A stretch of DNA of 56,504 nt, filler included, from Ionaspis alba (GCA_964255285.1; 3 parts of 3 records of this genome joined end to end with filler, not necessarily neighbours in it), one strand, 5' to 3'. Numbered from the whole stretch's first letter, positions 209 to 55,320 are shown. Notes: generated by a model from the letters alone, not told the origin. Made by a program: numbers and translations.

Positions 209-2656
209 ATGGATTTAATAGGAGTGGAAGAGCGAAATGCATGGCAGAATGAAGGGGACGCAATGGCCACAGAAAAGCCTCTGAAGAAGAAAAAGAGTCT
301 GCCACGGATATTCATCTTGTCGAGGAAGAAGAGCACGAAATCGAAATCACCTGCGGCTGATCGAGCCGCCGAAACAACCTTACATCCATTGCCTGCCAGC
401 AGGCTGCCCTCCGAGACCTCAATTGATACCGTACGCTCCACAAAGTCAAAGGATGGTGCGGAGACACCAAACACTGAAGAAAGGGTTTTGAGGGATATTG
501 ATGGCAATGTTCCAAGGAATGCTGAAGACTACTCTCCAAAGGACATGACAGACGTTGATCAGGACAAATCTATGATGGACGACGTCAATCTGGAGCACCA
601 GGATGAAAATCTCAATCTTTTATCCCATGTCGACCAGATCTACCACCTACAATCGAGCCCTTTAAAAACCCAAGTCACTTCAGATCAGATCATATTACCA
701 AAGCGGCCACGGAAAAACCTGCACATATCACCGTCTCTCAGACTGATGAATCGCTCTAAGCCGCCCCTGCCTCAGCAGCAGCAAGCGTCCTTCTTTCCTC
801 CTAGACCATATACCGCAATACAGGACAGATTTCCCGAAAATGCTCGCGATCCGTCCGAGCCCACACCTATACGAGTTGGTAGTGCTCGACAAGCCGATGA
901 AGACGACCCAGCACTTCGGAGATCTCCTATTTTAGAACAGTGGGTGCCATGGCAAGAGTCGTACATGAAGGAAGATGGGAGGAAAAGTACTCGATCTGGT
1001 TTGAGTACGGGTTCCAGTGCTATGGATAGCAGCGGAAGCACCGAACACAGCAGCATCTTCACGAAGATGAGTTCCGTCAGTGACATGACTATTGACCTCG
1101 ATGATATGCCATGTTCAAAACATGCGAGCATGACCGTGGACGATGCCATAGATCTCTACTCGGCAGGATTCGACGATGATTTCGATCTCAAAGAAGGTGA
1201 CCCAATGAAGTCACCGTGCTGTGGAGAGGAAATTCGAAGGAGATCGGTCAAGATAGCCGAGGCCATGAACGAAAAGATTGATTCTGTTCTCCTTGAGCCA
1301 CCACGCTCCATCTTCGCCGAAGAACCTCGAAGTTCAGCGGACATAATATCGGGAGCAGTCTTCCAGAGCATATTCCCTCGACCGCCATCGATTCAGACCC
1401 CAAACAGCACGCATGACCAGTACGGTTTCCTGAAAGCCTCCCGCGATGTCACAATAACACAGTACGACACCTGGCACAACGAATACGGCCCTATCCAAGA
1501 ACGGCGCACGAACAAATGGATCCACCTAATGCAAGACCAAGGTCTGTCCATCCAAAACCCCACCCGCTTCCCTTCCCGTTCGGCCAAAACCCAACGCTTC
1601 ATCCGTAAAGGCATTCCCCCCTCCTGGCGTGGCTCCGCCTGGTTCTTCTACGCCGGCGGCGACGCTCTCCTAAACACCCACCGCGACCTCTACCCCTCCC
1701 TCGTCCTCCTCTCCCAAACCCCCAAACTCAGCTCCAACGACAAAGAATCCATCGAACGCGATCTCAACCGCACCTTCCCAGACAACCTTCACTTCAAGCC
1801 CGACCCACCCCTGACACCTACAACCGAAACACCCCTGCTCTCCTCCCTCCGTCGCGTGCTCTGCGCCTTCGCCGTCTACCACCCCCGCATCGGCTACTGC
1901 CAGTCGCTGAACTTCCTCGCCGGGCTTCTACTACTCTTCCTCCCTGAAGAAAAAGCATTCTGGCTCCTTCATATCATCACAACACGCTACCTTCCCGGCA
2001 CGCACGACATCAGTCTCGAGGGCGCGAATGTCGATCTCTGGGTCCTGATGCTCGCGCTCAAAGACTCCCTCCCCTCTATCTGGGACAAAATCGGCGGCGA
2101 GGTGCAGACTTCCACGACACGACTCCCGCCTATTTCGTTGTGCACGACTTCATGGTTCATGTCGCTGTTTATCGGGACGCTGCCTATCGAGTCCGTGCTA
2201 CGTGTCTGGGATGTGCTCTTCTACGAGGGAAGTCGTACGCTCTTCCGTGTCGCGCTTGGTATTTTCAAGCTTGGGGAGAATGAAATCCGTGGTGTTAGTG
2301 ACCCAATGGAGATCTTTCAGGTCGTGCAGGGCTTGCCGAGGCGGATGGTGGGCATCGGTGCGTTGATGGCGGTGGCGTGTCGAAGGGGCGGTGTGGGGCA
2401 GGCGTGGGTGGAGAAGAAGAGGGCGGAGAGGAGGGAGTGGTATGCGAAGGAGAGGAAGGGAGAAAGGTTGAGGAAGGATTCGAGGGATTGGATGAGAGGA
2501 GAGGAAGGGAGGAAGGCGAGTAGGGACTTGGTTGTTGTGCTTGATGGGGTGGATGAGAGGCAACAAGGAGAGGAGGGAAAGAAGGAGGAGGAAGAAGGTA
2601 AGAGGGTGAGGGCTAATAGTGGGTGGAGGAGTCGCATCGGGTTTGGGAGAGGTTAA
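209..2656 (+). CDS. TBC-domain Rab GTPase-activating protein (Msb3/Gyp3-like)
   Basis: 815-aa ORF. C-terminal TBC motifs FIRKGIPPSWRGSAW, IERDLNRTFPDN (Arg finger), GYCQSLNF (Gln finger), LRVWD. Long disordered N-terminus; exact start uncertain. Confidence 0.9.
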   Translation: MDLIGVEERNAWQNEGDAMATEKPLKKKKSLPRIFILSRKKSTKSKSPAADRAAETTLHPLPASRLPSETSIDTVRSTKSKDGAETPNTEERVLRDIDGNVPRNAEDYSPKDMTDVDQDKSMMDDVNLEHQDENLNLLSHVDQIYHLQSSPLKTQVTSDQIILPKRPRKNLHISPSLRLMNRSKPPLPQQQQASFFPPRPYTAIQDRFPENARDPSEPTPIRVGSARQADEDDPALRRSPILEQWVPWQESYMKEDGRKSTRSGLSTGSSAMDSSGSTEHSSIFTKMSSVSDMTIDLDDMPCSKHASMTVDDAIDLYSAGFDDDFDLKEGDPMKSPCCGEEIRRRSVKIAEAMNEKIDSVLLEPPRSIFAEEPRSSADIISGAVFQSIFPRPPSIQTPNSTHDQYGFLKASRDVTITQYDTWHNEYGPIQERRTNKWIHLMQDQGLSIQNPTRFPSRSAKTQRFIRKGIPPSWRGSAWFFYAGGDALLNTHRDLYPSLVLLSQTPKLSSNDKESIERDLNRTFPDNLHFKPDPPLTPTTETPLLSSLRRVLCAFAVYHPRIGYCQSLNFLAGLLLLFLPEEKAFWLLHIITTRYLPGTHDISLEGANVDLWVLMLALKDSLPSIWDKIGGEVQTSTTRLPPISLCTTSWFMSLFIGTLPIESVLRVWDVLFYEGSRTLFRVALGIFKLGENEIRGVSDPMEIFQVVQGLPRRMVGIGALMAVACRRGGVGQAWVEKKRAERREWYAKERKGERLRKDSRDWMRGEEGRKASRDLVVVLDGVDERQQGEEGKKEEEEGKRVRANSGWRSRIGFGRG

Positions 2657-3219
2657 AGAGGGGGTGGATATGAGGGTTTTGGATTGGATGGTATACATCA
2701 AAGTACGTTGGTGGATTTATGGGAGACTTCCGAAGGGGGACGGACTTGGTGAGTTTGGAGGTGCCTGCCGCATACGAACGACCGTTACGACAATATATTA
2801 TTGATTCTGTGTACACGATCTTACGACATAGTATTGGACACATATTATCAGCTTAGATATCTATACATCGATCTTCTTCTACATAGCTCCGCCTCCTTCT
2901 TTCGTGAAGTAAGATTTACATGACCTTAGACTCAATAACGTACATGCAACCATGTCAGGGTGCTGTGTTGAAAATGATACCGAATAGTGTTCCATGCTAC
3001 GGAGCATAGAAAGTCATCGCTGCCACAAGTTCGCAAGGTCCTGACGAGACATCAAGCATATATCCCACTCATTTCTTGCACTACATACAGGCGTTATAGC
3101 CCTGGATATCCGTCATACGCCAAAGTCCAGCATAATAGTCCCAGAAGAAATTTCCCTCGACGCCATGGCTATGCTGTTCCCTGACACGCAAAGCAACTAT
3201 GTTATCGCCCAGTCAAACT

Positions 3220-4053
3220 TCACTCCAATTTGTCCAGATGCTCCAGTCTCGTAAGCACAACCTGCTTACTCGTCTCCTCGATCTCCCCAGCGAGGAACAC
3301 CTCATCGAGGATAGCATAGACCTAAACCTCCATCAGCCTCTCCTCTCCCTCCAATTCACACACCCGATCTCCTCTCCTTCCCTCTTAAAAATACCCCAGA
3401 CCACCTCCACCAGCCCAGCAATGCCAGTAGATAATATTGACGTACCTTATAAAAATTAAACACCAAATCCAACTCACAAACATTCCCAAAAAAGCTATCC
3501 AACACCTCCACAAAGAAATGAATCGCCTCCAAATACGCCAATTCGTTATCATTCGCATCCACACACACGCAGAAAAACAACCCCGCATATCGCCTATAAA
3601 CGATCTTCAGATCCCGGTTCGCGTTCGCGCCTGAGGCACCCCCTCCACTAGAGCTGTGGTTGGTGTTGGCGGAGGTGGCAGTGGCGGAATTGTAAGAGGA
3701 GGAGGCGGAGCGGAACTCGACAAAGTTGGATTGGTGCTTTTGGTCTCGAGGGGCGATGAGCCGGTGGACTTCGCCTTTGAGGCGGATTTTTTCTTCGTCC
3801 TGCAGGTCCGGAAGTTTTAGTGGGGGGAGGGGGAAGAGACGGGGCGTGGAGACAGGGTAGACGTACGCTGTAGGGGGAGTACCACTTTGCAAGGCGGGTC
3901 TTGCCTCTGCGAGAACGGGTATATTAGTCGATCGTGCTCTTGCTTGTCTGGAGCTGTGTCGGGGATAGAGCTGGGGAGCTGAGGGACGTTGAGTGTTCGG
4001 AGAGTGGAGGTAACGTACTGTCTATTCTGAATCAAAATGAATGAGAGCACCAT
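3220..4053 (-). CDS. APS2: AP-2 adaptor complex sigma subunit
   Basis: Exons 4053-4019, 3906-3867, 3799-3446, 3321-3220 with GT-AG introns. Product [21 protein letters not shown]...[13 protein letters not shown]...[43 protein letters not shown]. Confidence 0.95.
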
Positions 4054-4981
4054 GATCGCGATCACCGACGACAAAAGCCGCCTTGATCTGTTGAATATCG
4101 TGAAGGTCTAATCTAGGGTTCGGATTGGATATCAAGCCGGGCCTACAATTGGCCTCGAAGCTCGGCTCCAGACCCGAAGTAGAATAGAGTTTAGCCCTAT
4201 TTTCAGGAGCAGAAATATGGGGAACCCTGGACGCGTCGCATTAATGATTCGGCGTAATCTCATGCAGCACAGACTATTGATGGCTGGAAGGAACGTGATT
4301 TGTGTGATGAGTGTTGCAGCTAAATTAGGGGAATTGGGGAACGAGGGTGGTATCCTTCCCGGGAAAGTGCATGCAGAACTCGTTTGGGTCAGGATCTGAA
4401 AGTTGTAGGTACCTCCGTAGAGCTTGCTTTGAGATATGCTAGCTGAGTACCTTATCCAGAATCCACTCAACCACTGCTCGTCACCTCGTCTGTTCGTCCT
4501 CGCTCGCAGGAAGGGATATAAATACAGAAGACGTCAATCAAGCAATAAACGACAAACAAACAGAAATGACAAAGCGACGATATCCACGGCCATCTCTCTC
4601 TCTCTCCCAATATCCTGATACATACACCATCAAAGCTCCCTGTTCCCAAGAGACACTCAATCCCACATCTTCAAACCAAACCTATCCCCGCACTTTTCTC
4701 TTCAACCCTTCACCCATCAATCCACAGAGAATCAAACATTATCCACAAACCAGCTGCCAGCCACTCGTGCCGCAGAATCATCGAAGCCAAAATAAACAAG
4801 TGAATGAAAAAAAAAAACATGAAAAAAAAACATGGGGTATATCCAATCGAGAACACTCTCCTGAGCCCGCCCATTAAGAATTAAAAATATATGTAATTAT
4901 GTACCAAATATGCATCCAGCTTCGTCCCATCCGGAGAAACTAACAAACCACGTGGCGAGTATATCGCGACGAGTGAGTGCA

Positions 4982-6591
4982 TCATAGAGCAATAGCGACA
5001 ATCGCCGTCAGAGCCATCAAGCTCAACCCAGCTGCAGTGATGTGTAAGTTACATCCAGCATTAACAGGTTTGGCACTAGCAATCGGCGATGTAGCTGCAG
5101 GACCACTAGAGCCACCATTCGTGCCTGATGGCGTTGTTGTCTGCGCGACAAAAGAGGCACTGGAGCCCGTCGCAGTCTCGGTGTTATTCTGCACGAGGAC
5201 GTGCGGCGAGTAGGAGTAAGTGGGATAGGCGCTGCTCGACGAAGCAGAAGACACTTCAGCTGTGGTCGAGGCTTCTGCCGACGAGCTGCCAGAAGAGGAC
5301 GACGAAGGCGCCGAAGACGAGCTTGGTGCAGCCGAGCTCGAAGGCGCGGAGCTAGACGCAGGAGCAATTGAGGGCGTAGGCGAAGTACTAGGCGTAGGCG
5401 ACGGACTGCTGCTAGGCGGTGGACTCTGCGACGACGAAGGCGAAGGCTTCTGGCCGCCAGACCCGTTATCACCACCCGCACCCTTCAACTCGCCCTCAAA
5501 AACTACAAAATTAGCCTTCACCCCCTTCGGAACCGTAACGACGCAAAAAGCCGCTCCACCCGCGCCGTCCGTGCCCGCCCCAACCATCTGATTGACGTTC
5601 GACCTGCCCGGATCGACGGCACAGGGGAGACCATTGCAGCCATCCCCATCGCAGACGATCTCGACGCCCCATTTGGGGACTTCGTCCCGGAAGGGCGTGC
5701 CCGGTTCGAGCCAGATGGGGTTGATGCCCAGCTTTACGAAGGTGTTGCCGTTGTGGTCGGTGTTGGCGCCTGCGACGTAGGGACTCCAGTTTCCCCAGGG
5801 GTTTTCGTTCGTGCCCCAGACGCAGACTTCTTCGTAGCCTTTGCCGGGGGGGTTGATGTAGAAGCTGGGTGGAGGTTAGGCTTGGCTCTGGGAGGGGAGG
5901 AGGTGTGGGAGGGACTTACTGCGCGGCTGTTCCACACCAGTAGTCTGGGCCTGGGACGGTGATTTGGGCCCAGTCTTCGATTGAGGTGGGTATTAACATG
6001 GCTTCGTTGCCTGGGAGTACGGTCTGGCACCATGCCATTCCTTTGCCCGTCTTGTCTTTGACACCGATGTTGCCGGTTCCGTCCATGCAGTAGGGTTTCT
6101 CGGGGAAAGGCTTGTGGACGTTGCCATCCTTGTCGCAGTACAACCCACCATCCTATATGACGTTAGACGATAGCTCTGTGCGACTTGCGCAGTGGACGTA
6201 CCATAGATAGCGGATAGGAGTACGACGTCGCCTCCGGATTCCACTGCGCCATCATCTGTCCCGAGGGACAAGCGTAAGGGCAATAGTTGCCTGGTTTGCA
6301 AGGCTGGTCGGGACTCATTGCCCATCCTCCATTCTGAGATCCGGGTGTTACAGCGACGAGTCCGGCATCCGTCGGGAACTTGCATTTGCCATCGCGTCGT
6401 TCAACCTCCACTGATGACCTCAAGTCCAAGGCTGGTCCAACCTCCGCTTTTGACACGTGTGGTTCCCGGTTGTGATGACGATGTCTGCGCTCAACGGTAT
6501 CGAATAGAGCATGACTGTGTTTGGCATATGCGACTGATGCTTGTAGGGCAAGGATTGCGCCGATTGCTGAAGTGATTTCCACGAACTTCAT
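4982..6591 (-). CDS. Secreted SUN-domain (GH132-like beta-glucosidase family, Adg3-type) protein with Ser/Thr-rich tail and probable GPI signal
   Basis: Exons 6591-6202, 6152-5920, 5864-4982. Signal peptide; Cys pattern CKPGNYCPYACPSG, GGLYCD, CQTVLPGNEAM, CVWG, GNWSPYVAGAN; S/P/T-rich stalk; hydrophobic C-terminus. Confidence 0.9.
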
Positions 6592-7783
6592 CTGACGAAT
6601 TGCTCTCTATTGACGGCCAGAGCTAGCCGGTATAGGTATATAATTATATAGTATGGTATAGATAGGACGGTTTGTCCTCTTTGCTGAAGGGTCCTGTAGT
6701 CCGTCGAGTATCCAATGCCTCCAACCGCGACTCGCAGGCTAATAATGAGGGTATAGTGGTATCGATATATAGCAATCAGAGAGTGTAAATAATTGATATC
6801 AGGCGCAAACACACTGCAAAAGAGCGACTGTGGTAGGACTAAAGAACGTAAAGCTGCAAGAACAGCGACAGCGACAGTGAGCTTGAACGACGACGACGGC
6901 GACAGCGAGGGAGAAGAAAGGAAATGAGCAGCATAAGGGAGGAAAAGCGAATGTAACGACACCAGACGGGACATATTGGCGCGCATGGCCCCCCATGGCA
7001 AATGGCCATCCATCTCCATAAAGGAGATGAGCAGTGCGGGTTAGCCAATCAATGCCTTTGTTGATCCCCTGCAAGCCTGTATCGAGCAGGGGAAGGCTGC
7101 TGTGTTCCTGGGGCCAAGCTTCTTGATCTGGAACGTTCCGACTATACCGTAAGAGGACTAGAATGTGAAATGCAATTTCTGGAATTGTGGTGATTTGTGA
7201 ACTATGAGACCAATCATGCAGTGGCTTGGTGTGATAAATCATCTCAACGGAAATTAAAGATTGGTCAATGCTCAAATTGCGGGCTGGAATGTACCGAGGG
7301 ATTTCGCTAAAAGCATGCCCTAAGTTTTTATTTACCATTTGCTAAAGATCGGAATGTCCTGCATTCTTTCATCACTGTCTCTATCTTGCTGATGTTACCC
7401 GCTACCTCCGTCTGCATATTGGCGTGATGGGCTGGAGCATGAACTCTGCAATGAAGCATGAAGGAAAACCCTAAAAAGAAACAGAACCAAAAAATGAACC
7501 AAAAAGCAGCCTGCAAACCAACTGCTTCTCGAAAATGCTTCTCTAAACTGGTCAGCTTGAGTTGAGCGAGAACATTGCTACCGAACCATCAAATACAGAT
7601 ACAAATATCAGATCAATACAGGAGTTCTACCAGAACGAAAAGACCTATTAACATCACTTCAGCACCCAGGACCATCGAGACACGGTGGGGAGCAGTTGTG
7701 ATCAACGTGATTACCGATGTCTTATATTTCCGTGATCTACCAGTACAACAAAATCCACCGCCGAGCGTCTGCACCATCAACAC

Positions 7784-8965
7784 CTACTGCGACACCCTCC
7801 CCTTCCACCTCTCCCAAACCTTCCCATTGCCTCCATTCCCACCGCCCTCGCCATTCCTCCAACCCCAAACAACACAATAATGTTTCGCCAACAAATTCAA
7901 CTCCTCAACCTCATCCAGCATCTCCACCTTGCTCACCCTCGCCTTCTCCTCCTCCGCAATCCACTCCTCATGCAAGAAATCCACATCCACAGCCCCCGTC
8001 CCATCCACAAACCCATACGTCCTCAATCGCTCTTTTTGGATCTCCAGCGAGCTGTATTTTTGCAGCGTTTGTAAGACGATGCCTCGTGCGGCGAGATTTG
8101 AAACCATGACTTTACCGAAGGCGTCGAAGGGGTTGGTCGGTTCGTAGAGGACCAGTCCGAGCGGTGTGCTGGCGTGGAAGACTTGCGTGGTGAAGTAGTT
8201 GACTACTGCGTCGGCTTTTTCGGGCGTCAGGTAGATGAGACAGCACTCGGAGATCAGTAGAGTGGGTAATGCCGGGTCGATATGGTGCAGTTTTCCAGGG
8301 CCAGCCTGGGATGCGTGGAAGGGATTCAGATCTCGGAGATCGATGGCGTGAATGTGGTAGTTGGGACTGTGGAGTTCGGCATCGGTGGTCAGGATCGAGG
8401 ATTCGGGACCGATGTGTCGGGAGAGGCGGGGACAGAGGTGGATTTTGGAGATCTTTTGCTGGGTGTTGGTTGGGAAGTCGAGCTCGTGGTAGAGGACTTT
8501 TGGTGGGTTGGGTCTGCTCATCAGGCGGAAATAGCGAGTGTCGGAGCCTGCTCCTAAAGAGATGATTTGTTTGAGGGAGGTCGAAAGCGAGGCGGAGAGG
8601 AAGTCGTCGACTAGTTTGTCGATGGCTGTTGTTCGGAGATATGTACCTGGAGGCCCGTGTCATGCAAGAAGCAAAATATGTTTCGAATAGGATATACCTC
8701 TATTGATGATAGGAAACCTTCTTTGCGCTCCAGGTACAGCAAACAATTCAGCAAAGGGATCTTCAAGATACCCCGCCTCCACAGCACTCATTCTCGAAAT
8801 ACTAGCATCCTGATCCGTCTGCTGAACGATTCCATCTTTCTTAGCATTCAGGGCCTCAGCATCTTCATCAATTCCCAAATCTGGTCCGCCTCGACCTCTT
8901 CCATGGCCGCGCCCCGCCTGTCGCGCATTTCTTGAAGTTAGCAGATTAGGGATCCCGGAAGCCAT
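7784..8965 (-). CDS. PPM1: Leucine carboxyl methyltransferase 1 (PP2A methyltransferase)
   Basis: Exons 8965-8698, 8646-7784. Motifs VQQTDQDAS, PIINRGTYLRT, QIISLGAGSDTRYF, LLISECCLIYL, MLDEVEELNLLAKHYC. Confidence 0.93.
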
Positions 8966-9229
8966 GTGGGAAATCAATGGCGTGCATGAGGGGCCGAGGC
9001 TTACTTTATAAGTCGTAGTCACAACGCAGACCCACCCTCGATTTCTCACACTATTACCCATTAGCAGCGATCTGTACCCCATAAAATCGCTTCCGATTAT
9101 CCATATTGTTACCCGTTCTCCTGGCGGCAGCCTCGCTTCGCCTCATGCAGGTCTAACATCGTACCGGCCGTATTCTCTCGACTCGCTCTGTCAACTCTTC
9201 TGCAGCCACACCCGACTGTTGACGGCAGA

Positions 9230-9880
9230 ATGTCGGGCCCCTCGAAGAAACCTAATGCCTACGGCACTACGACTTCAGATACTTCCTTTCGCAAGACGTG
9301 GGATCGCGCAGAGTATGCTGCTAAAGCCGAAGCTCGGGAGGCGAAAGTGAAGGAGGAGGGCAAGGCTCGCTATGAAGCCAAGCTCGAGGGCAAAAAATAC
9401 ATTCCTCGTGCCTCCACACCGCCTGATGCCAAAGAGACCGAGTCACGGACCTCAAGGCTGGATGTCGCTAGCAACGTAGGAAAGACCTCACTTGTGCCTG
9501 CGGGCGCGAGCACAGGAAAGCGTGGAAAAGGCGCTGGCTTCTACTGTGGAGACTGTGATTTGACCTTCAAGGACAACCTGCAATTTGTGGATCATCTGAA
9601 TAGTCGACAGCATTTAGTTGCTGTTGGACAGAGTGGAGAGGTCAAGAAGGCGGGATTGGAGGAGGTGAGGGATAGGTTGGCATGGTTGAAGAGGAAGATG
9701 GAAGAGGAGAAGGCTACGGATATTGTGGATTTGAGGGCCAGATTGGAGCAGAGGGGTGAGGATGAGGAGAGGGAGAGGGAAGAGAAGAGGAGGAGGAGGA
9801 GGGAGAAGAGGAGGAAGACGCCGGGTGGGGTTGGGGTCAAGAGGGAGGAGTCTGTGGAGGGTGATGGAATTATTTGTTGA
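9230..9880 (+). CDS. SNU23: U4/U6.U5 snRNP-associated matrin-type zinc-finger protein (Snu23/ZMAT2)
   Basis: FRKTWDRAEY motif; zinc finger GFYCGDCDLTFKDNLQFVDHLNSRQH; charged coiled-coil C-terminus. Confidence 0.85.
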   Translation: MSGPSKKPNAYGTTTSDTSFRKTWDRAEYAAKAEAREAKVKEEGKARYEAKLEGKKYIPRASTPPDAKETESRTSRLDVASNVGKTSLVPAGASTGKRGKGAGFYCGDCDLTFKDNLQFVDHLNSRQHLVAVGQSGEVKKAGLEEVRDRLAWLKRKMEEEKATDIVDLRARLEQRGEDEEREREEKRRRRREKRRKTPGGVGVKREESVEGDGIIC

Positions 9881-10177
9881 TCAGGCACTCAATGCTTTTC
9901 GGAACACTGGCCTAGGTGCACTTGCACTGGTACTGCATACTTGATACCCATTAGATCAAAGAATCTTTGAGACAGCCTATGCCTCCAATACCTGATAAGA
10001 TCTATCCTTTCACTCGAAGGACAGTATGTCCTAGTCGGTAGACCTTCATGTCCAGTGGTAGTCTATCCGATCTCCAAGTATTCATATCTCTTGACCCATA
10101 CCATACTCATCACAGCACCAACGCCAATTTTGAGGGTATCATGTTACACTGAACGGCAAGAACTCCGAAATGGACAT

Positions 10178-37683: not shown

Positions 37684-37783
37684 NNNNNNNNNNNNNNNNN
37701 NNNNNNNNNNNNNNNNNNNNNNNNNNNTTAATTAATTAANNNNNNNNNNNNNNNNNNNNNNNNNNNNNNNNNNNNNNNNNNNN
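37684..37783. other. Artificial contig linker (N44-TTAATTAATTAA-N44)
   Basis: Same six-frame-stop spacer at 37728-37739. Confidence 0.95.
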
Positions 37784-42320: not shown

Positions 42321-42585
42321 ATGCAGCTCACCAAGCTCTTCCTCATCTCCGCCCTCACAATAGCCGTCAGCGCCTACGGCAGTGGCAACGAAGCCCAAGG
42401 CCTGTACGCACGCGAAGCCTCCTTCGACAACGACGACCATTACCTCCATGAGCGCGAAGCCTTTGACAACGACGACCATTACCTCCATGAGCGCGAAGCC
42501 TTTGACAACGACGACCATTATCTCCATGCTCGCGAAGCCTCCTTCGACAACGACGACCATTACCTCCATGCGCGCGACGCCGTCC
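42321..42585 (+). CDS. Secreted tandem-repeat peptide precursor (KEP-like), 3' end lost in the gap
   Basis: Signal peptide MQLTKLFLISALTIAVSA followed by four REA(S)FDNDDHYLH(E/A) units; runs into Ns. Confidence 0.85.
42411..42572 (+). repeat. Coding tandem repeat with 42/39/39/42-bp units
   Basis: Units start at 42411, 42453, 42492 and 42531, each beginning cgcgaagcc. Confidence 0.95.
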
Positions 42586-43743: not shown

Positions 43744-44334
43744 ATGCATTCCCTCTCCCTAGGAGCAGCTTTCCTGGCCAGCGCCCTCCTGACCTCCGCC
43801 CTTCCAACTGGCACGGACTCCCTAGTCCCGCGCGCCTGCGCTACGGAATACCCGTCCCTTCACAACCACATCATGGACGTCTACCCCGACCGCTCTGACA
43901 CCGAAAACTTCTTCGACGTCAACTACGGCTACGTCGTCGAAGGCAAAAAATACCGCTCCGACCAGCTCGTCCGCTTCGACAACATCCCGGGCGGCAGCTA
44001 CGGCTGCCAACTCGAGCTCGTATTCCCAGCTGGGCAGGAGATCTTCTTGACGGGCAAGACGAAGGTCAATGTGTTTACGGTTGATCGGGATGCGACTGCC
44101 ACGGACACCTGGGGAAATTCGCCGCAGAAAGTCAGTTTGTTTGGGACTGTGGATTTCAATCTGGTTCCGAATCAGCCGTTCAAGAGAGTGATCAATTCGG
44201 CGGTTTGTAAACCGTCAATGTCGTTCCGGTTTTCGTTGGAGAGTACTACGGACTTGGGGGAAGTGCTGTATTATCCTAGGCAGGATGGGCCGGGGAAGCC
44301 GGGCGTTGGGCTGAGGATTACGCACAATTGTTGA
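43744..44334 (+). CDS. Secreted But2 C-terminal-domain-like protein (196 aa)
   Basis: Signal peptide plus LVPR pro-site. FDNIPGGSYGCQLELVFP, LFGTV, VINSAVC and terminal ITHNC are typical of this fungal family. Confidence 0.72.
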   Translation: MHSLSLGAAFLASALLTSALPTGTDSLVPRACATEYPSLHNHIMDVYPDRSDTENFFDVNYGYVVEGKKYRSDQLVRFDNIPGGSYGCQLELVFPAGQEIFLTGKTKVNVFTVDRDATATDTWGNSPQKVSLFGTVDFNLVPNQPFKRVINSAVCKPSMSFRFSLESTTDLGEVLYYPRQDGPGKPGVGLRITHNC

Positions 44335-46173
44335 TTGAGTGATCTAAGGACGAAATGTTCGTGGTCTGAACGATATGGTGGAGTTGCAGCGAGGTGTAGA
44401 TGGGATACTCTCTTTTATTAGGTGGTGACTTTACAATGTACGAGACCTGCAAGCAGATGTTTAATTTAAACATTAGTAAACATTCGATATGCTCAGATTC
44501 TATGACGCTAATATAGCACGTGAACCTTCTGCCAGTGTTCACGTGGGCTCCGGAGATACGTCCGAGCTCAGATGGTATTTCATGAGAACTGTCGTTCTTC
44601 ACTTTACCATATCACAACATCCTGGGTCGCTAAGCACCATAATAGACTGTTTATCCCAGACAGCTTGAAATCAAATACATTTTACATCCTTGAGCCTCAT
44701 GGATATCCGCCATCATATCGCATTTCACATTTTGTTTCGATCTTCAGAGAACTCTTAGTGACATATAAAAGAAAGCCTAGCGATGATGGTTCGGTTCCAG
44801 GTCGACCGCATGGCTCGGGCCGCCGAATGGCAGCAAAAACAGTTCGTTTCCCAGAACCCGCTCCGCCTCTTGAGATTCGTGCATGACTTGAGTACGACGC
44901 CGACTCTGGGCACCAGATATGTTGTCGAAAACCAATTCTGGCAAGCCATACGCGTCATCGGTACCTGGGCCTATTTCGGCCGGGGATCTTAGTGGGGAGC
45001 AAGTAGCGCTGCAAGAAAAACATGGATAGGAGAAAGTGTGGCTTTTACGCTCAGCGGCAGAACCCGCAAAGGCTGCGGCTCTGTCGCTGGCAGTGGCGTA
45101 TAGGGTTTGACTGATGCGCTCATGAGGGTTTCGTTCATGTTCAAAAGGAAGAAACACTCTTGATCTCTGGGACAATTGCACGATATACCATGATGCTCCT
45201 CGTGATATATCAGACTCATACACAAAGGAACAGGAGACATGGTACCATTCATGCAGCCGTAATGCACCAACAAGATGTACATGCACTCCCATTGAATGGG
45301 ACCAATCGAAGAATTTGTGGTAAAACAACGCCGTCCGAAAACCACGAGTCGTCCTGCATCTACAGAAATCAAAGAGGCTCCTCCGGCAATCGATGTGTAA
45401 TAGAATCACTCGAACGGGGCGTCGCAACAAATGTCTGGCCAGGACGATTTGAGGCGCAACCATCTCGGCAGTACAATTACCGCAGCTAAGCAGACTGTAC
45501 CCACACGACGACGCACGTTCTACTCAGACTTGCCAAAATACCGTCGTCCTCATTCGTCATCCATGATTTGGATTCTTCTTTCCTATTCGATGTGCTGTTG
45601 TTCTACCCATGTACCTTACGGGACCCACTACCGTCGACCTAATGCACTTTTCAATATGCGCTCAGTCGCTCCAAACCATTCTTGCTCAACTACCCATGCC
45701 TATATCATAGATTCGACGCCTTTTTGGGAATTCCATATTCTAGATCGAGTAAAGATCATATCCTTCACCCTGGTCAAGATCTGAGATCTTGCTCCGACGA
45801 CGTAGGTTCGCCATCCTACCGCAAAGCCGATGGAGGTCTCCGTCCTTCCTTATACAACCAATGCCAAAAATCAACCCTATTCTGCCAATCTATCGGTCTC
45901 AGCTGGCCATAATGGATGGCTCCTACCGGAGTTCTGTTATACACGCTTCTATAGCGTCGCTGCAACGAGGGTTTCTCTCATTGCTGGTTGCCAAGTACCC
46001 ATATTGTTGCCCTGAAAACAGAGTTTTCCGGCTTTCTCTTAGTCTGTGTCCTCCGTTTACTGCCATGGCCTTCAAATCATGACGTCTCCCACGCTGGAGG
46101 TTCTATATCTCTTCTTTTGTGACATGTTTTCTGTCCTCGAGTGTTTTCATCGTTGCCCGTTGTCCTCTAAGTC

Positions 46174-49100
46174 ATGGACGTTCAGAATGTGGCCATACCA
46201 GCGGGGCTGTTACAAGCTCGCGGGAGCGTTGTTGCTGAAGAGGATGTATCAGCACCGCAGCAAACAGCAACACCGACTGAAACTTACGATGCGGTCCACG
46301 CTGCTGTTACCAGAGCAAGTGCTCTCTCCGTCACACTCGGTGGGAGGGGGCGAAATCGGGCGACTAGCTACCAGACCATTGCCAATAGACTCCCCATCAT
46401 CGGCGCAAATCAAACCTTCCATCCTATATCCGAAGAGGTAGATCCTCTTGAGGGTGGTGGAGGAACAACACTACTCCAACGAGCAACAACCGTTAACCTC
46501 GGAGGTCTAGCACGAAGTAGAGCCTTAGGACGTCCCGATCGATCGAATGCCAACCTTCAGAACCGGACACCACTCGATACCAGGTCTCGGAACCCCACGC
46601 ACAGAAACTCGACGGCGGGCATGACGATGGACAACTCCCTCCTCTTCCAAAGCCTGAACAACTTCAACTTCTCTAATCAAGCTGGCATCAAGAGACCTCC
46701 ACCTCTTTTCATTGCCCGAACAACCTCTTTGAAGACAGTAGACTCGGAGCCTCGATCCCCAGGTCCTGCTTCCCTATCCAGCAGCACCAGACCAGTACCT
46801 AATCGCGAAATATCCGGCAGATCGGGGCTGTCCCGTCATTCAGCCATCTCAATGCAGACGATCCTGCGCCGTGCCAGCGTGCTCGTCGGTGATGCGGTGC
46901 AAGGTGTAGCTGACGCGGTGACAGATACCGTCCAGACGGTTGGGAATGCTGTGAGGAGGACTTCCCTCTATGAGACGTACAATGGATATTATAAAAAGGC
47001 GCAGATTAGACAGGAGAAGCTTAAGCGCAGCAAGGTCACTATGGTTGCGTTTCGGTATACGTTTTATTTATTCTTGCTGGCTTTGCTGTATTTTCTGATG
47101 ATTGGATTCCCTCTCTGGACGGGATTGGTGCTGGAGATTTATTATTTGCTAAGTAGGAGTTTGGTTATTCCTGGGGGTTTTGCAATTTTTATTGGGGTCG
47201 CTTTTTTGTGAGTCCTCTTGGCGGCGCAGTCAGGTCTCAGGATTAGAAGAGTATGCTAATGGCAAATCCAGGTACGCTTTCCTGCCTCTGCTCGTGAACT
47301 TCGAGAAATCCGCACCAGAGATTGTACTCGATAATCCGGAGGCTGGTCCCAGACGGACGGACACGGCGTTGTTGATTCCGTGCTATAAGTCGGAGAATCT
47401 TATTGGTGCGACACTGGAAGCTGCGCTGAAGATTTTTCCGGCGGAGAGCATTTTTGTGAGTGCTTCCATGTTTTTCATTTCACAACATTAGGGAAGCGAT
47501 GGTTGCGGGTGATCTCAGAAGAAGACTAGTGGCAAGCAAAGCCTAACGACGATTGTATGCTGTGGGAGTCCGATGAGTGATGCTTCCATGCAAGCAATTG
47601 TGGTTCTCGTATCCCGATGAACTTCTACCGGAACATGACTGATTCAGTTCACATGTGATAGGTTATCGCAAATGGCAATTCTCAAACACCACTTGATAAC
47701 ACCGCTGCGGTCTGCGAGAAATACAATGTCTCCCATACTTGGTCTCCTATGGGCTCGAAAATCATCGCGCAGTTCGTTGGTTGCTTCGTTGCAAAGGACT
47801 ACCCGAACGTTTTGCTCATCGATGACGATTGCCTCTTACCACCAAACTTCCCTATCGTGACCGACAGGATCAGAGGAAGGGTCAAAGTGGTGGGATACAC
47901 AATCAAAAGCACAGGTCCGAATAGCAGCAAAGGTACCTTGTGTCAGCAGGTATGCGCCGATTCACCCCAAATCCTCGAGCGAAAGTTGACGAATTGCTTT
48001 AGGCTCAAGACATCGAATACAAGCTCTCGGGCCTCCAACGAATCTTCTCCGGCATTATCGGCAGCGCCACCTTCCCTCACGGCGCAATCTCTGTCTGGGA
48101 TCGTGAATTCCTCGTTCAGACCTTCCAGCAACACCCCGGCTTCTCGGTCAGTGAAGACTGGTTCTTTGGCCACGTTGCGCGGCAGCTAGGCTCTCGCATT
48201 GTTATGTGTTCCTCCGTCTTCGTCGAGACCGAAACTCCAAGCGCAGTCTTCTCCTCTTCTGGAGGCGCCAGAGGAGGCTTTGGGGAAATGACGGTCTGGA
48301 AGCAGAGGTTCTTCCGGTGGAACTTTTTCTTCGTGAACGGTATCTATTATGATATGTATTATATTCTTTTCAATTGGAGGTTGGGATTTTGGGAACTTGG
48401 AGCCAAGATCTTTGTTTTCCAGGAGGTTTATGAAACGGTTTTGTATCTGCTTGCGCCGTTGGTGCTACCGATTTCTTTTGTGGTGAGGCCAACGTTTTGC
48501 GCGTATTTGTTTGTGGGCACTTTTGTTATGTATTTCGTTAATGCTATTATCTTCAACTTCGTAAGCATACCTCTTTCCCAGATGGATTTACTGAGAGCTA
48601 ATCATAAACTTTTTCAGGTTCATCTTCGATCTCGAAAGGAAAATGTTAGCCTAATCGCACTCCTGTACTACATGCCTTACAAGGTAGTTCTTACCTTCGT
48701 CAACATTCTCTCCTGCTATCACAGCATCATCGAGTATGCGAAATACTTCTCCAAACGCCACCCCAAAGTCATCGAAGACGATAAAGCCGTCGAGATCATC
48801 CTCCGACTTGAGGAAGAAAAAGTACCGCCAACCACAATCATGCCCACCACTTCGGACCCAAGATCTTCCTACAGCTCCGTACAGCCGGCGAGAAGATTCA
48901 CAATCACAGCGGTAGGCACGCGCCTAGCCGCCATCCATCAAGACACGCCCCTCGAGATCGACGAAAAGGATTTCGCCGATATTCCACTCACAAGCGTTCT
49001 ACCGACCCAGCAACCCATCCACCGTACCTCTGGCGCCACCGCTGCCGGTGCTCTCGTCGGCGTCCAAGACTTCGCTCTCGCCCGTACCCAGTCTCCATCT

Positions 49101-49991
49101 TCCATCGTCTCGGAGCATTTCCACACCACGCGTCCACGTTCCCCTATCTCCGTCACCTCCGAGCACTCTATTCCAGCGCCTTACACCCAAGATCTCGAGC
49201 CCATCCTCGAAGATGACACGTCCCTCCCTGGCCTCATCAGCTGGGCTCCGCTGCGTCCCGCGCCCTCAACCCGCAGCTCGCGCGCCAGCTCCCATGCTAC
49301 AAATTGGGCATCAGCACTGCATCAAGACCTTAGCGTTCTACATGGCAGTACCGCTCTTCGCAGCCCGGATTCCACCAGTCCATATCCGCATGGAAGTCCT
49401 ATCAGCCAACCACAACCCGCACCAGGTCGCCGCTCCTCCTTGCGCCGCCCTCGCTTGCGTTCACCGATTCAGTCCAGCGACTCGGCTATAAGCCCTACCA
49501 CAACCGCTGCTCCCGCCCACCGTCTCCCATCTATCCGCCGTTCCTTTTCGCCTACCATACCTGCCTCTTCCCGCAATCCCATAAACTCTGTTACCCCTCC
49601 AACCGCAGTCACCACCACCACCACCATCGCCAACCCTAATATAGTATCCGGAACGATTGACCCCCACTCCACCCTTCCTCTCGCCCAAGCAATCGAATCC
49701 GGCCTCATCACCCTCAGCGAGAATCTGCTCGCGCTCACGCAGCGATCTCCACCCACCCGCACCACGGCGTCCACGCCGCCCCCTGCAAGCGCAAATCCGA
49801 GGCCGAGGAAGAGGACGAGGAGGTCGTGGGGGAGGACGAAGACGCTGATTATTCTGCCAGATAGTGAGAGTGAAGGGGAGGGAGGGAAGGTTGTGGGAGG
49901 GGCAGAGACAAGGAGCGAGGGTGGAAGGAGAGAGAGCGAGAGCAGGGCTGATGAAGCTCTCATTGGGGGAAGGGTCAGACATTCGGCTTGA
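46174..49991 (+). CDS. Membrane-embedded processive glycosyltransferase family 2
   Basis: Exons 46174-47207, 47272-47455, 47662-47949, 48003-48560, 48618-49991. N-terminal TMs, LLIPCYKS, VIANG, LLIDDD, AQDIEYKL, SVSEDW, VETETP, KQRFFRW, then C-terminal TMs and a disordered tail. Confidence 0.85.
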
Positions 49992-50694
49992 TGGGAAGAG
50001 TGGTGCGTTGTGCTCATCGGAGATAGAAGTGGTGTGCGTTGCCAGAGGTGGATTTCGTTGTTGAACTTTCTCGAAGCCTGNNNNNNNNNNNNNNNNNNNN
50101 NNNNNNNNNNNNNNNNNNNNNNNNNNNNNNNNNNNNNNNNNNNNNNNNNNNNNNNNNNNNNNNNNNNNNNNNNNNNNNNNGAAGTGGTGTGCGTTGCCAG
50201 AGGTGGATTTCGTTGTTGAACTTTCTCGAAGCCTGAAGGGAAGAAGATTAATGAAGCGATTTAGCGCATGATGTTTGCAAAATCAGCATTGGAAGTGGGA
50301 TGCATTGGCGAGGCGAAAGTGGCGAAAAGGAGACTGGCGTTCAAAAGATGAAACGATGTTGGATATTTAGCTATATATGGAAATCATTTGATGAATCACG
50401 ATATCTAATGGCTGCTCAGATAAGCAGGCTGGCGTTTCCGACGACGTTATAGTCAATTGACAGTTCGACGACCACATTCATATCAGGGCATTCAAAGACA
50501 GACCTTCGAAAATTATATGTGTATTAGCCGTCACTCAAATCAACCGCGACCAAGTACACCACAAACGCTCGAAAAATGCAAACAATTCACAAACAAACAT
50601 TCACTCATTCCAGCTCACCTCTACCGGCACCCACGCCCGCAAGAACGCCGTTTTCCCCACCACAACCGCTCTCATATCCCAACCCCCACTCCGC

Positions 50695-51923
50695 CTAAAC
50701 CGTCCCCGCAATACTCAAATCCCTAATCTCCCCCAGAATCTGATCGACCCTAACATCCAATCTGCCCTCTGCATAATTCTCCCTCGTATCCGCATCCAAA
50801 TACTGCTGCACCTGCGCCATGCGCGAATACGCCTCCGAGCAGAACCTGAGTTGGATTTTCACCAACGCCTCGAAGCTGGGATCCAGGTACGGGACGCGTA
50901 GGTCAATGAGTTGAGGGAGTTCAGTGAAGAGTTGCTCGTTCAGGTTCTCGTAGGCGGTTTTCGCGAGCTCGGATTCTCGTTCTGCTCGGGGAAGTTTGGT
51001 GGCGTCTTTGTCGGGTTTTTCGACGAGCTTTTTGACGCGTGCGCGGGTGGCGTCGTAGTCGAGGAGTTTGTGGTTGCGCTTTTTGATGCCTGAATTGGGA
51101 TTTGGATTAGTTGGGTGAGGGAGATGGACAGAAGGGGGGAGTGGAAGGTGTGGGATACGGGACGCACACTCATTGATGTCGGGAAAATAGCTGCAGAAGC
51201 GGCCAATGGGTTCGAGGACTGTGGTTCTATATTACTCTTGATAAGCCACGAACTCTTGATGGGGGGAAGAGCAGCGATCGATCCTACCTGTATGGACCGT
51301 CGAGCGCTTTGATGGTTTCGGCATCTAGGTCTTCCACGGCCTGCTTGTAGCTCCTGCTCACTCCATCCTTTGCCCCGGCGTCGCCGTAGAAGGCGTCGAT
51401 AGTCTCAGCGATGCGCATTTGGGAGGCAGTCATGGCTACGACTGATAGTTAACCATTGTATTTCGCATCCCAGGTATTGCTAGCTCACCTCGAAGAGCAT
51501 CAAGGTAGCCCTTCGCTTCCTTCTGAAGTCGATTCGCTGCACTTTCCAGGGTTCGGTAGCGCCTAATGCAGCTCTCAGTAAGGAATCCTTTTCCTTCGTC
51601 TGCTGAAGCTCTTTATGCCACGAAGGGCATGGCAAACGATGGTGGAGTTGGAGGACGATCCATACCGCTCTTCGACTTCGTAGTCTCGATCGTTGGTCTT
51701 CTCCACATGACCTAAAGCACGCAAGTATGAGCTTAGTGCGTCCCAATAGCGAGAACATGCAGTTTCCGTGGATATGACCAAAGCTCGCGGGAGGGGCGGG
51801 GCATACCAGTCTTCATCATCACCTGGGTCGTCGCTCGATTGACATTCTTCTTGAAGCCTGCATCATCTGTTAGGAGCAGGTTAGACATAGCACTGGAAAG
51901 GAATACAGACCTGCCCAAGACAT
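50695..51923 (-). CDS. RVS161: Amphiphysin-like N-BAR protein
   Basis: Seven exons spelling MSWAGFKKNVNRATTQVMMKTGHVEKTNDRDYEVEERRYRTLE...AMTASQMRIAETIDAFYGD...IKKRNHKLLDYD...QLIDLRVPYLDPSFEALVKIQLRFC...LSIAGTV*. Confidence 0.95.
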
Positions 51924-53677
51924 GGTTAGGTTAGGAGAAAGGTCGGTCTCAAAGATGCAAGATTGACGCAGATCGTGGTGGTTCGACGGCCGTGAAAAGA
52001 CTACACACTTGGAACAAAGGCAGCGATACGCAAAGACAAGATCTCGGGATGACGAGTCTCGGCTATTTTGATCGTGGCTGTTAGACTAGCGAGATAGGCG
52101 CTGTGGTTGTTGAGCACTATATCCGACTGTCCTAGGCCTGCGTGCTTCATTCCCTCCAAATACAACCATCAATTACAACGTTTACCATTGTTAAGCAGAT
52201 CGTCCCCCAATTTAAGTCTCTCGATAGAAGCTTTCGATGCGATATCTTATACGTGACTCCTTTGATACCGGCGAAGCTAAGCTACATGCGATTGGATGGC
52301 CCAGACGATAAAGATCTGCTGGCAATCTTCAGTGTGAGCCATTCATCTAATACCAAGGTCAAAACCTCATCTATGGCGTATTTCACAGCGAAGAGACAGC
52401 AAATCTGTATAGTTGGCAAGCTACCCGCTACTTGCCGTGGTCTTCAGCCCAAATTCGGTTCGAGGAATGAGGATCACTATTGAAGTATAAGCAGGACCTA
52501 CCGGCGCAGGAGTAGAAGTCTGACGGGACGAAGATCGAAAGACACATATTCTCCTATCGTGCAAACAGTCCTCATAGCTATACAAGTCAAGGAGTCTCAG
52601 GGGATATTTAGAGCGAAGAACGATGTTCTCTAATTGTCCTATTCTTCCACGTCGATTTCGATCATGACTTTTCATCTCTGTGCTATGCTCTTCACGTGAG
52701 AGCAGTCCTCATCTATCAAACAAGCTGTTACGATTAGCCTATCGTAGCCATGAAACATCTCAGTGCTCTTTGGAAGATTGCAAGAGTTTAGGGGGTAGCA
52801 GAGCGCGGCCTTGCCATCCTGAGAGACAGCTGAACGACAAGAGTGACCTTGAACTGGCGCAATTGAATAATGGACAATACCGAAGCGATTATCTGTCCGA
52901 TCATAGCAAGCATGGCTGGATGGGAGAACGGTCCATGTACGATAGAAGGGAATGACATGGGTTCAGCACCACTGAGAAAAGTAACAACTTGTTTAGCACA
53001 TATAGTGATGACTAATGTCACCTCGATGGTATCCCACATGCACTATTTCGTGTAGGGTCTTCAACCCCCAGACATTTAGATGGCATCAGGATGGGATATG
53101 GGGGACGGGACGCCGCGAAGTCCCAATTACATCACACAGACATCACGTAGAGCACCACTAGCCAAGCATCGGAAAGTATGATGACATAAAACAAGAGCCA
53201 GAAGCAATGAGCCTCCAGTTCTTCATTCAATTGAAAGTGCTANNNNNNNNNNNNNNNNNNNNNNNNNNNNNNNNNNNNNNNNNNNNNNNNNNNNNNNNNN
53301 NNNNNNNNNNNNNNNNNNNNNNNNNNNNNNNNNNNNNNNNNNAAAACAAGAGCCAGAAGCAATGAGCCTCCAGTTCTTCATTCAATTGAAAGTGCTAAGC
53401 AAGCGAGGTCGTTGCCCAAGAGTGTACCGTCCTTGCCTCTCTAACAACAAACCCCCTCTCTATCTCCTTAACGCCGTGCCTGAAGAACGAACAAACGACA
53501 ATAAGTCAGAAGTGTGATGCGAAGGCCGTGAGTAAATGATTGCGCAAGCGATGCCGATGCGCTGGGAAGGCTATGCCGGTGACTCGTCACAGATCGTGAA
53601 AGGCATGTAGGTAAGGTCAAAGCGAGGCGGAGAACAAGCGTGGCGAAGTTTTAGATAGGAGGAAGGAGAAGAGGTCG

Positions 53678-55320
53678 TCAGAAGCCCTCTTCACCAGCTT
53701 TGCAAAGCTTGATCTCGCGCCCCCACTCCGACTTCAAAACTTGGGAAGCGGTGATCCGGCGCGTGGGATTGGGGTCGAGGATGGAGTAGATGACATTCCG
53801 ACACCTCGCCTGTCCAAACCAGTCAGCCCTTATTCAAAGCCCAAAAAGGAAAAAGCAAGGGAAGGAGGGAAAAAACATACCCGATGCAACGTCTCAATAG
53901 GCTGATACCCATCCTCATCCCTCCTCCCCTCAAGATACCTTTCAAAAAACTCATCCTCATCCCTCTTCGCCACCCTCCACAAATGCCTCCCCGTCCTCAT
54001 GGCCATATAAATCACCCCCGTCGCCCAAACATCCACCGCCCGGGGATCAAACTCCTTATCCACATACTCCTCCGGAGCAATATACGGCGCACTTCCACAA
54101 AGCCCCGCCGTCATATGCGCCTCCTTCTCCCACGCCATGCGAAAACACTCTCCATTTCCAAAATCCGTAATCTTCAACGATCCATGCGTCGTCAGGAGCA
54201 AATTCTCCGGTTTCAAATCCCGATGCGCAACCCCCATCTCATGCATATACTCGACGCCCCTCATCATCTGCTTGAAATAACAATCCGCCTCCACGACATC
54301 CAATTTCCCCGCCGCCAAGACCAACGTGTACAGATCACCCCCGGCACAGAATTCCATCACCTCGCAATAATCCCCCTTGGCGTCCTGCAGCAAATCAAGC
54401 GTATGGATCACATTCGGATGCCGCAAACTCGAACTGATGCAAAACTCCGACGTCAGTCTCTTCTGATACTTCTTCGGCGACTCCTGCGGCCGCCGCCGAA
54501 ACTCCTTGACCGCGTACAGCTGCTCGGATTTCGAGTCGTTGGGGTCTGTTTTGTGGGAGATGCGTACGATGCCGAAGGCGCCGCGGCCGACGATTTCTTG
54601 GCATTTGCCGTATTTTTCGACGAGGGTGTGCGTTGCGTTGGGGCCGCCTTTTTTGTCGGTTGCGAGCCGCTCGCGCTCGTTTTTGAGCTGGTCGACCCAC
54701 GTTGACATGAGTGAGAGTTGTTGGTGCTCGGGGTCGTGGTCGCCGGCGCCTTCGCCTTTTTTCTTATTGCCCCCGAGCATGTCCCGCAGCATGTCCGAGA
54801 GCTTTTCTTGCCGTTTGGCGCTTTTCAGTTGGTGCTCGTGGGTGCCGTCGGGGTGGAGGATGAAGCGTTGGTGGGGATGGTCGGGGTCTTTGGTGTCTTT
54901 GGGGTCTTTCTTTATGTTTGTCGTGCTCTGTTTTCGGTCGCTGGAGGCGGCGGATTCGGGTCGCTTGTCGCTGTGGGAGGGTTGGCGGGAGGGAGGTTTT
55001 CGTACTGAGGCTCGAGAGGTCGTACCGTTCGTCTCTGGTTCCGAGACGCTGTTTTCTCCAGGTTGTCCATTGGGATTTTCGGATGGGGTGGCGTTTTTCG
55101 GGCCATGAGAGAACATTCGACTCAGTCGACCGGTAATCGTGGGCTTTTTTGGTGTCGGTTGCAATGAAGCATTGTGAGCCGCTCCAGTGGACTCCTCGGG
55201 TATAGTCGGAGTGGTGTCGGTCTGTTTGGCATCCTGTGAATAGAGGGAGGTCGAGGATACGGACGGAGAAGGTGTTGAGGATGGCTGGTTATTAACGAGT
55301 AGAGTTGATTGGGCACTCAT
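53678..55320 (-). CDS. NPR/HAL-family Ser/Thr kinase (Hal4/Sat4-like)
   Basis: Exons 55320-53881, 53809-53678. VGRGAFGIV, YAVKEF, RLTSEFCISSSLRHPNVI, HRDLKPENLL, ITDFG, CGSAPYIAPEE; last exon ARCRNVIYSILDPNP...AGEEGF*. Confidence 0.93.

Follow-up and report, generated by a model that had tools for sequence, protein, structure and literature searches.

Strand-skew flips in a 56.5-kb stretch of fungal DNA follow the 3' ends of genes

The coding strand of fungal genes is known to be biased towards C at the 5' end and over most of the gene, and towards G in a short 3' region that often continues into the untranslated region (UTR) (McLean and Tirosh 2011, BMC Genomics 12:638, PMC3315797). According to the same study this skew is present at fourfold sites, alters amino-acid use and varies between species and genes, AT skew is largely uniform along the gene, and the proposed causes are position-dependent transcription-coupled mutation or an adaptive avoidance of C towards 3' ends (PMC3315797). 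A C bias at fungal transcription start sites had been described earlier (Fujimori et al. 2005, PMC555766). Here we analyse one strand of a 56,504-nt stretch of Ionaspis alba DNA (GCA_964255285.1; the whole stretch is called the window below), in which a C/A-rich block repeatedly gives way to a G/T-rich block inside a gene. These skew flips are the already-known fungal gene-polar GC skew, in a strong case from a Lecanoromycete.

The features that define the pattern in the account of McLean and Tirosh, namely a C-biased gene body, a G-biased 3' end running into the UTR, skew at silent sites and a shift in amino-acid use, are all found in the window. While their curves, as presented in that account, are genome-wide averages, single genes of the window reach ±0.5–0.8 (300-nt windows) and 7 of 12 flips are step-like. 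The window also adds direct evidence from introns and shows a C block that is bounded in two genes, those for a TBC/RabGAP protein (TBC below) and for the BAR protein RVS161. The data set of McLean and Tirosh includes many filamentous ascomycetes (PMC3315797), and Lecanoromycetes are absent from the portion of its species list that was examined. Among the matches listed for the literature after 2011 there was no fungal follow-up, and none paired 'lichen-forming' with GC skew.

The DNA of the window is nuclear and comes from a filamentous ascomycete. Its TBC/RabGAP protein (209–2656) has the best named relatives in the lichen-forming Lecanoromycetes Xylographa, Ptychographa and Lambiella (59–61% identity), with further relatives at up to 67%. 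An assembly artefact is ruled out, as an independent assembly of a public run matches positions 1–10000 with 0–3 differences per contig. Genes were mapped with Pfam on all stop-to-stop open reading frames (ORFs) of at least 95 aa, complemented by 30 non-overlapping ORFs of at least 150 aa that were defined mechanically; this set covers 53.9% of the window and possibly includes spurious antisense frames.

Measured in 300-nt windows, GC skew lies between –0.72 and +0.83 (standard deviation 0.224), and 16.5% of these windows have an absolute skew above 0.3. In five mononucleotide shuffles the standard deviation was 0.077–0.091 and absolute skew never exceeded 0.295, so that no window passed 0.3. 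A detector that compares 400 nt on the left with 400 nt on the right and demands a GC-skew jump of at least 0.6 called 13 C-to-G flips (at 2203, 3649, 8117, 9476, 13964, 17755, 22412, 40951, 42586, 44029, 49807, 50872 and 54521) and 8 flips of the opposite, G-to-C, kind. An earlier reading of this DNA, made by a model from the sequence alone (the sequence-only reading below), had reported recurrent strand-skew flips. Their existence is confirmed: 8 of its 9 switch points are matched within about 60 nt, with an amplitude that the shuffles never approach. The ninth, at 5690, is a weaker swing (–0.21 to +0.29) that stays under the jump threshold. The flips had further been called sharp, which is true of about half of them, since a step of at most 50 nt is the best fit in 7 of 12 flips and a ramp of 300–600 nt in the other 5. 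Neighbouring genes that had been described as flat do have a lower amplitude, but their skew is of the same sign: third positions of SPT3 run through –0.38, +0.02 and +0.51, the gene with TPR motifs ends at +0.56 and ALG6 reaches +0.35.

The arrangement of the flips relative to genes is very regular. All 13 lie within mechanical ORFs of at least 150 aa, and all 13 lie 177–691 nt upstream of the stop codon of such an ORF, although only 31.9% of positions qualify (binomial P = 3.6e–7). Flips in the opposite direction fall outside ORFs in 7 of 8 cases. Read in gene sense the polarity is uniform: C/A-rich sequence lies upstream, followed by G/T-rich sequence over the last 0.2–0.7 kb of the gene and its 3' UTR. 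G blocks, taken from the flip to the next opposite flip, are about 440–610 nt long in the genes measured and end about 40–410 nt past the stop codon, at the onset of AT-rich sequence. The sequence-only reading had considered the flips independent of gene orientation, given their occurrence in genes of both strands. A C-to-G boundary is its own reverse complement, however, so it looks the same on the plus strand for either gene orientation, and occurrence in plus and minus genes says nothing about independence from genes. In gene sense there is one polarity and one position class, and the claim has to be given up.

The same regularity bears on the first interpretation offered by that reading, in which the flips are fixed intragenic bidirectional origins of replication and the skew is the footprint of leading and lagging strands. 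Skew jumps caused by replication are known at bacterial origins and at human N-domains, and they share their sign with the flips of the window. This negative-to-positive polarity is the only property that fits, whereas scale, spacing, intragenic location and dependence on gene position all differ. Thirteen flips in 56.5 kb, about 1 per 4.3 kb, equal the density of genes (30 ORFs), and their stereotyped distance from stop codons is not expected of origins. The skewed blocks span only 0.3–1.2 kb before they reverse at gene boundaries, which is not the scale of a replicon, and in orthologues from distant fungi the pattern stays with the gene, as the conserved flip of the TBC gene illustrates (see below). 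Amplitudes of 0.5–0.8 are also far above any eukaryotic replication skew known to us. Intragenic origins are thus hardly credible as an explanation, the least so of those considered here.

Codon-position skew was computed in 300-nt bins aligned to ORF ends. As the sequence-only reading had stated, the skew is present at third codon positions, in introns and in UTRs. Third positions (–0.76 to +0.91) are more skewed than positions 1+2, and values for single genes are given in the table below; in the ORF at 22079–23554 the signal sits mostly at positions 1+2. Of 22 ORF segments, 15 have a positive third-position skew in the last 300 nt, 6 a negative one and 1 a skew of zero. The GC content of third positions (GC3) is raised to 0.65–0.79 in the blocks versus 0.42–0.56 in flat genes, and within the TBC gene it is 0.68–0.74 versus 0.48–0.54 in the 5' half. 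The ratio of observed to expected CpG differs little (0.95–1.08 in blocks versus 0.78 in flat genes). Third positions also have more A than T in sense-C blocks and more T than A in sense-G blocks, so that the contrast at silent sites is one of amino (A, C) versus keto (G, T) bases. It is strong in the kinase gene, where third-position AT skew stands at +0.66 and +0.65 before the flip and at –0.65 and –0.80 after it, and in the CFEM gene it is –0.94 in the last 300 nt. Over all positions the A/T contrast is weak (A 0.244 and T 0.199 in C blocks, A 0.235 and T 0.248 in G blocks), while sense G blocks overall have G 0.363 and C 0.154.

Introns take the composition of the block in which they lie. 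Intron 6 of RVS161 (51090–51167), in the sense-C block, has C 0.51 and G 0.03 (GC skew –0.89), while the five introns upstream of it range from –0.26 to +0.11. The intron stretch of the APS2-like gene lies in a sense-G block, with G at 0.45 and C at 0.07 (the interval used is slightly off the splice sites), and a candidate intron of the SUN-family gene (5865–5919), found by an automated search, uncurated and in a sense-C block, has C 0.61 and G 0.07. The RVS161 introns were curated by hand, and the joined exons form an open frame of 262 aa; the automated intron finder mixed plausible with spurious candidates and was excluded from counts. For the APS2-like gene the stop of the mechanical frame falls within the intron, and the true stop (3220–3222) was read by eye. 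The 150 nt past the stop codon are G-skewed in 10 of 11 genes, reaching at least +0.36 in 6 of the 11; in the 3' UTR of the CFEM gene the skew is +0.69.

The bias also shapes proteins, which the sequence-only reading had anticipated. Positions 1+2 have a skew of +0.33 to +0.37 in the last 200 nt of the window ORFs versus about 0 upstream, and in the last 300 nt of the TBC gene they reach +0.72. The tail of the GT2 glycosyltransferase switches from P/T/S/A-rich to R/E/G/K-rich exactly where the flip lies, at 49798. One may therefore ask whether codon preference and protein composition produce the skew as a side effect, with C-ending optimal codons in gene bodies and charged, glycine-rich tails. 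C-ending third positions do dominate the bodies, GC3 is raised, and the TBC tail is R/E/K/G-rich in 15 of 15 aligned orthologues. But the same skew fills introns and 3' UTRs, so that codon selection and protein composition cannot be its cause, and the change from C-ending to G/T-ending codons takes place inside the conserved TBC and BAR domains. We regard this by-product explanation as very improbable, only slightly less so than origins.

The sequence-only reading had suggested looking for the flips in orthologues, and in the TBC genes of many other fungi the flip is indeed kept at the orthologous place. We collected 80 metagenome loci encoding TBC relatives (40–61% identity), which with the window make 81 rows, all anchored on the codon of the window's flip. 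Over these rows the mean sense skew rises from –0.25 (450 nt before that codon) to +0.33 (150 nt after it), and the loci include lineages with strong and with weak skew. After removal of near-duplicates 57 sequences were left, the window included, and of the 40 loci whose flank was long enough, 32 show a net G excess of at least 60 past the flip. The place of the flip varies about as much relative to the stop codon as relative to the orthologous codon (standard deviation 173 versus 171 nt; Spearman 0.34, P = 0.06). No match to APS2, the neighbour of the TBC gene in the window, was found in any of the 80 loci.

Other genes of these organisms behave similarly. In 7 of the 8 window ORFs of at least 900 nt (the TBC gene included), third-position skew is higher over the last 300 nt than between –900 and –300. 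The same comparison holds for 12 of 14 non-TBC ORFs in JAABU-named contigs, which carry the closest TBC relatives, and for 38 of 59 in other contigs. In these non-TBC ORFs third-position skew is negative through the body and positive in the last 200–300 nt, in a weaker form than in the window. At –1300 to –600 nt from the stop, third-position skew is –0.14 to –0.48 in window ORFs, –0.10 to –0.28 in JAABU-named contigs and roughly –0.1 to –0.3 in the remaining contigs; window ORFs reach +0.42 to +0.46 over their last 200 nt. Upstream of the ATG the skew is –0.09 to –0.20.

The position of the flips relative to stop codons, the skew of third positions, introns and UTRs and the recurrence in orthologues together point to a strand-asymmetric bias that acts at the non-coding level and is tied to the 3' end of the gene. 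The sequence-only reading had kept a focal strand-asymmetric mutation process in reserve: its strand asymmetry stands, since neutral sites carry the skew, but the asymmetry belongs to transcription units and not to free-standing sites. As grounds for abandoning its proposals the same reading had named a skew that vanishes at synonymous and intron sites, or one explained in full by distance to the transcript 3' end. The latter is nearly what we find, all flips being 177–691 nt from a stop, while the skew at third positions and in introns does not vanish. We consider it probable that each flip marks, inside the gene, the border between the two parts of a gene-polar compositional asymmetry of fungal transcription units, and that this asymmetry is caused by a transcription-coupled, strand-asymmetric substitution bias with a distinct regime at the 3' terminus and not by selection on codons or proteins.

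How such a regime might arise can be proposed from known cases. In yeast, transcription-dependent T>G/A>C mutations arise via abasic sites opposite which Rev1/Pol zeta inserts C, transcription-coupled repair clears lesions from the transcribed strand, and loss of RNase H specifically raises T>G on the non-transcribed strand (Owiti et al. 2018, PMC6063437). This route adds G to the non-transcribed strand, but in the account given there it is known from reporter genes and not as a driver of genome composition. In the termination zone of the genes studied here the non-template strand may be exposed by pausing of RNA polymerase II and by RNA:DNA hybrids, and lesions on it would escape transcription-coupled repair. 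If bypass of these lesions inserted C opposite them, as in yeast, the non-template strand would drift towards G. Growing G-richness might in turn favour more hybrid formation, which could explain the extreme amplitudes of particular genes. A step of this kind would account for the gain of G at the 3' end and would leave the C bias of the gene body outside. At human gene 3' ends, terminal GC skew is reportedly linked to R-loops (RNA:DNA hybrids) and termination (Ginno and colleagues, in 2013). The window resembles this case in the positive GC skew of the non-template strand near the 3' end. In humans such skew is said to lie mostly beyond the poly(A) site, whereas in the window the block covers the last 60–230 codons, G clusters are not enriched and hybrids are putative.

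Several observations weigh against a transcription-coupled substitution bias. Its putative link with transcription is drawn from the position of the skew within genes. Sense G blocks contain 145 runs of three or more G versus 178.3 ± 8.5 in shuffles and 2 G-quadruplex (G4) motifs versus 6.4 ± 4.5; neither is enriched, which gives no support to selected, hybrid-initiating G clusters. Substitutions between close relatives, counted as singletons in five lineages of about 2% divergence after a filter that drops columns near gaps or other variable columns, show no robust asymmetry (T>G 2 versus A>C 0, A>G 5 versus T>C 5). At clean sites on the G-rich strand 23 losses of G stand against 9 gains, which is unlike an ongoing enrichment. 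The C block of TBC and RVS161 is confined to about 400–700 nt beside the flip, the 5' part of both genes being flat, where a simple body-wide regime predicts otherwise. Among 158 ORFs pooled over species GC3 and skew amplitude do not correlate (Spearman 0.09, P = 0.25). Finally, third-position AT skew changes sign at the flip in the window, while McLean and Tirosh, in the account consulted, report it as uniform; this mismatch is a difference of degree or detail and leaves the defining GC pattern unaffected.

An apparent excess of T>G on the G-rich strand was seen before filtering, with 17 T>G versus 1 A>C (P = 6e–5) and 9 versus 0 in sense-G blocks. After filtering 2 versus 0 remained and the excess was rejected as an alignment artefact; it stems from indel-rich tracts of low complexity that were misaligned and from a contig that ends in poly-C. 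The loci L001 and L006 (and L002–L004, L007, L009, L014 and L015) differ in their match ranges but represent one orthologous locus in five lineages that are 97–99% identical. They form a small natural sample in which substitutions can be polarised and counted in a strongly skewed relative. Non-coding skewed tracts of these relatives (L015/L003/L001/L006/L007, alignment columns ~12850–13300 and 22100–22150) are indel-prone, microsatellite-like G/T-rich and C/A-rich arrays. Such arrays vary in copy number already at about 2% divergence and yield false strand-asymmetric 'substitutions', and L003 ends in poly-C, which is probably a contig-end artefact. In nine independent pairs, G/T and A/C differences numbered 30 versus 19, about what composition predicts.

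The excess of G losses over gains would be expected if a fixation bias opposed mutation, and it leads to selection at the level of RNA or transcription as an alternative: avoidance of C at 3' ends could tune the flow of polymerase, or G/U-rich 3' regions could serve RNA-binding proteins or termination. An adaptive hypothesis of this type is among those published (PMC3315797). G blocks that stop shortly after stop codons, where AT-rich sequence sets in, look confined to the transcript, and the position of the flip is conserved over large distances. Yet neighbouring genes differ widely in amplitude without falling into any evident functional class, neither G runs nor motifs are enriched over composition, and a weak benefit would be bought dearly by a bias that overrides codon choice in conserved domains and remodels the tails of proteins. 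We hold such selection to be unlikely, though it is the strongest of the competitors.

It is also conceivable, but less likely still, that the flips mark focal sites about 0.2–0.7 kb upstream of stop codons, long conserved in position, at which a two-sided process writes a symmetric keto/amino dipole of ±0.5 kb with raised GC3. Such a site may be a hotspot of recombination or break repair whose gaps are filled by error-prone synthesis, or it may be a cryptic divergent promoter inside the gene. The step-like form of more than half of the flips and the bounded C block of TBC and RVS161 speak for it, and so does the local rise of GC3, as GC-biased gene conversion gives; misinsertion of G or T on resynthesised strands would produce the polarity seen. 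On the other hand, the flips lie in conserved coding exons and not in nucleosome-free intergenic DNA, their distance from the stop is stereotyped, and the C bias spans the whole upstream ORF in the kinase, GT2 and PPM1 genes. The metaprofile shows a body-wide C bias with no bounded dipole, and if resected 3' tails were deaminated, the polarity would be reversed. A hairpin between the C and G arms was also considered and discarded, as only short, low-complexity matches of 72–92% were found in 5 dipoles, with no true inverted repeats.

The window offers a very clear view, gene by gene, of a fungal phenomenon that is known but has yet to be explained. A bias of the non-coding level overrides codon choice in conserved domains, fills introns and UTRs and determines what the C-termini of proteins are made of. 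In such fungi, protein tails of low complexity may have arisen as by-products of mutation. One should not take GC-skew flips in fungal contigs for origins; in unannotated contigs from fungal metagenomes they can help to orient genes and to place 3' ends.

Table. Skewed blocks and flips of the window by gene. Third-position GC skew is given for successive 300-nt bins in gene order.
Gene	Interval	Strand	Blocks and flip (plus-strand positions)	Third-position GC skew
TBC/RabGAP, coding sequence 209–2656	1450–2764	+	sense C/A block ~1450–2150, flip 2144–2203, G/T block to ~2764 (~110 nt past stop)	–0.73, –0.59, then +0.10, +0.85
APS2-like clathrin adaptor sigma	3220–3900	–	G/T block ~3230–3649 including intron ~3325–3443, step-like flip 3650, C block 3650–3900	
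SUN-family gene, stop 4982–4984	4450–6150	–	weaker, more complex swing around 5690	
PPM1/LCM methyltransferase, stop 7784–7786	7650–8700	–	G block ~7650–8117, flip 8048–8117, C block to ~8700	–0.67, –0.61, +0.68
zf-C2H2_jaz gene, stop 9878–9880	9230–9919	+	flip ~9467–9476, G block to 9919	+0.91 (last 300 nt)
unnamed ORF 13708–14244	13708–14450	+	flip 13964–14025	
CFEM gene, ORF to 18004	16950–18318	+	C block from ~16950, flip 17755–17816, G block to ~18318	–0.76, then +0.44
unnamed ORF 22079–23554	21950–23000	–	step-like flip 22412	
HD-domain gene 40528–41262	40400–41500	+	flip 40951–41042	
unnamed ORF	42231–43232	–	flip called at 42586, place uncertain: abuts masked 42586–42685	
unnamed ORF 43549–44334 (But2-like gene of the sequence-only reading)	43549–44500	+	step-like flip 44029	–0.64, then +0.55
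GT2 glycosyltransferase, stop 49989–49991	48650–50394	+	C block 48650–49800, step-like flip 49798–49807, G block through 3' UTR to ~50394	
RVS161 (BAR), 7 exons, 50695–51923	50420–51290	–	G block 50420–50872, step-like flip 50872, C block to ~51290 including intron 51090–51167	
protein kinase gene, stop 53830–53832	53908–56000	–	G block 53908–54521, flip 54521–54582, C block over remaining ORF	–0.52, –0.17, then +0.58, +0.80

Masked stretches of N occur at 18816–18915 (44+44), 30902–31001 (100), 37684–37783 (44+44), 42586–42685 (100), 50081–50180 (100) and 53243–53342 (100 bases). All six sit in AT-rich intergenic or UTR sequence, and the one at 42586–42685 blurs the flip there.

Assembly of run X1 splits at 847–962 into two 116-nt variants with 3 differences (depth 53.9 and 40.5), which look like two alleles or strains. 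Contigs of run X2 comprise low-depth copies of the same organism and APS2 of other organisms, and run X3 gave next to nothing. In the APS2-like gene of the window a 99-nt low-complexity stretch (3611–3709, minus strand), C-rich in sense and rich in Ser, Ala, Thr, Asn and Gly, lies exactly at the flip in an otherwise conserved subunit. A contig of another organism from run X2 joins 3610 to 3710, so the stretch looks lineage-specific, and the flip here coincides with a low-complexity insertion into a conserved adaptor subunit.

Strongly skewed sequence is poor in stop codons in some frames, and long spurious antisense ORFs (167–303 aa) lie over skewed blocks at 2198–2701 (–), 17387–18145 (–), 49461–50282 (–) and 53794–54705 (+); frames of this kind could mislead gene callers.

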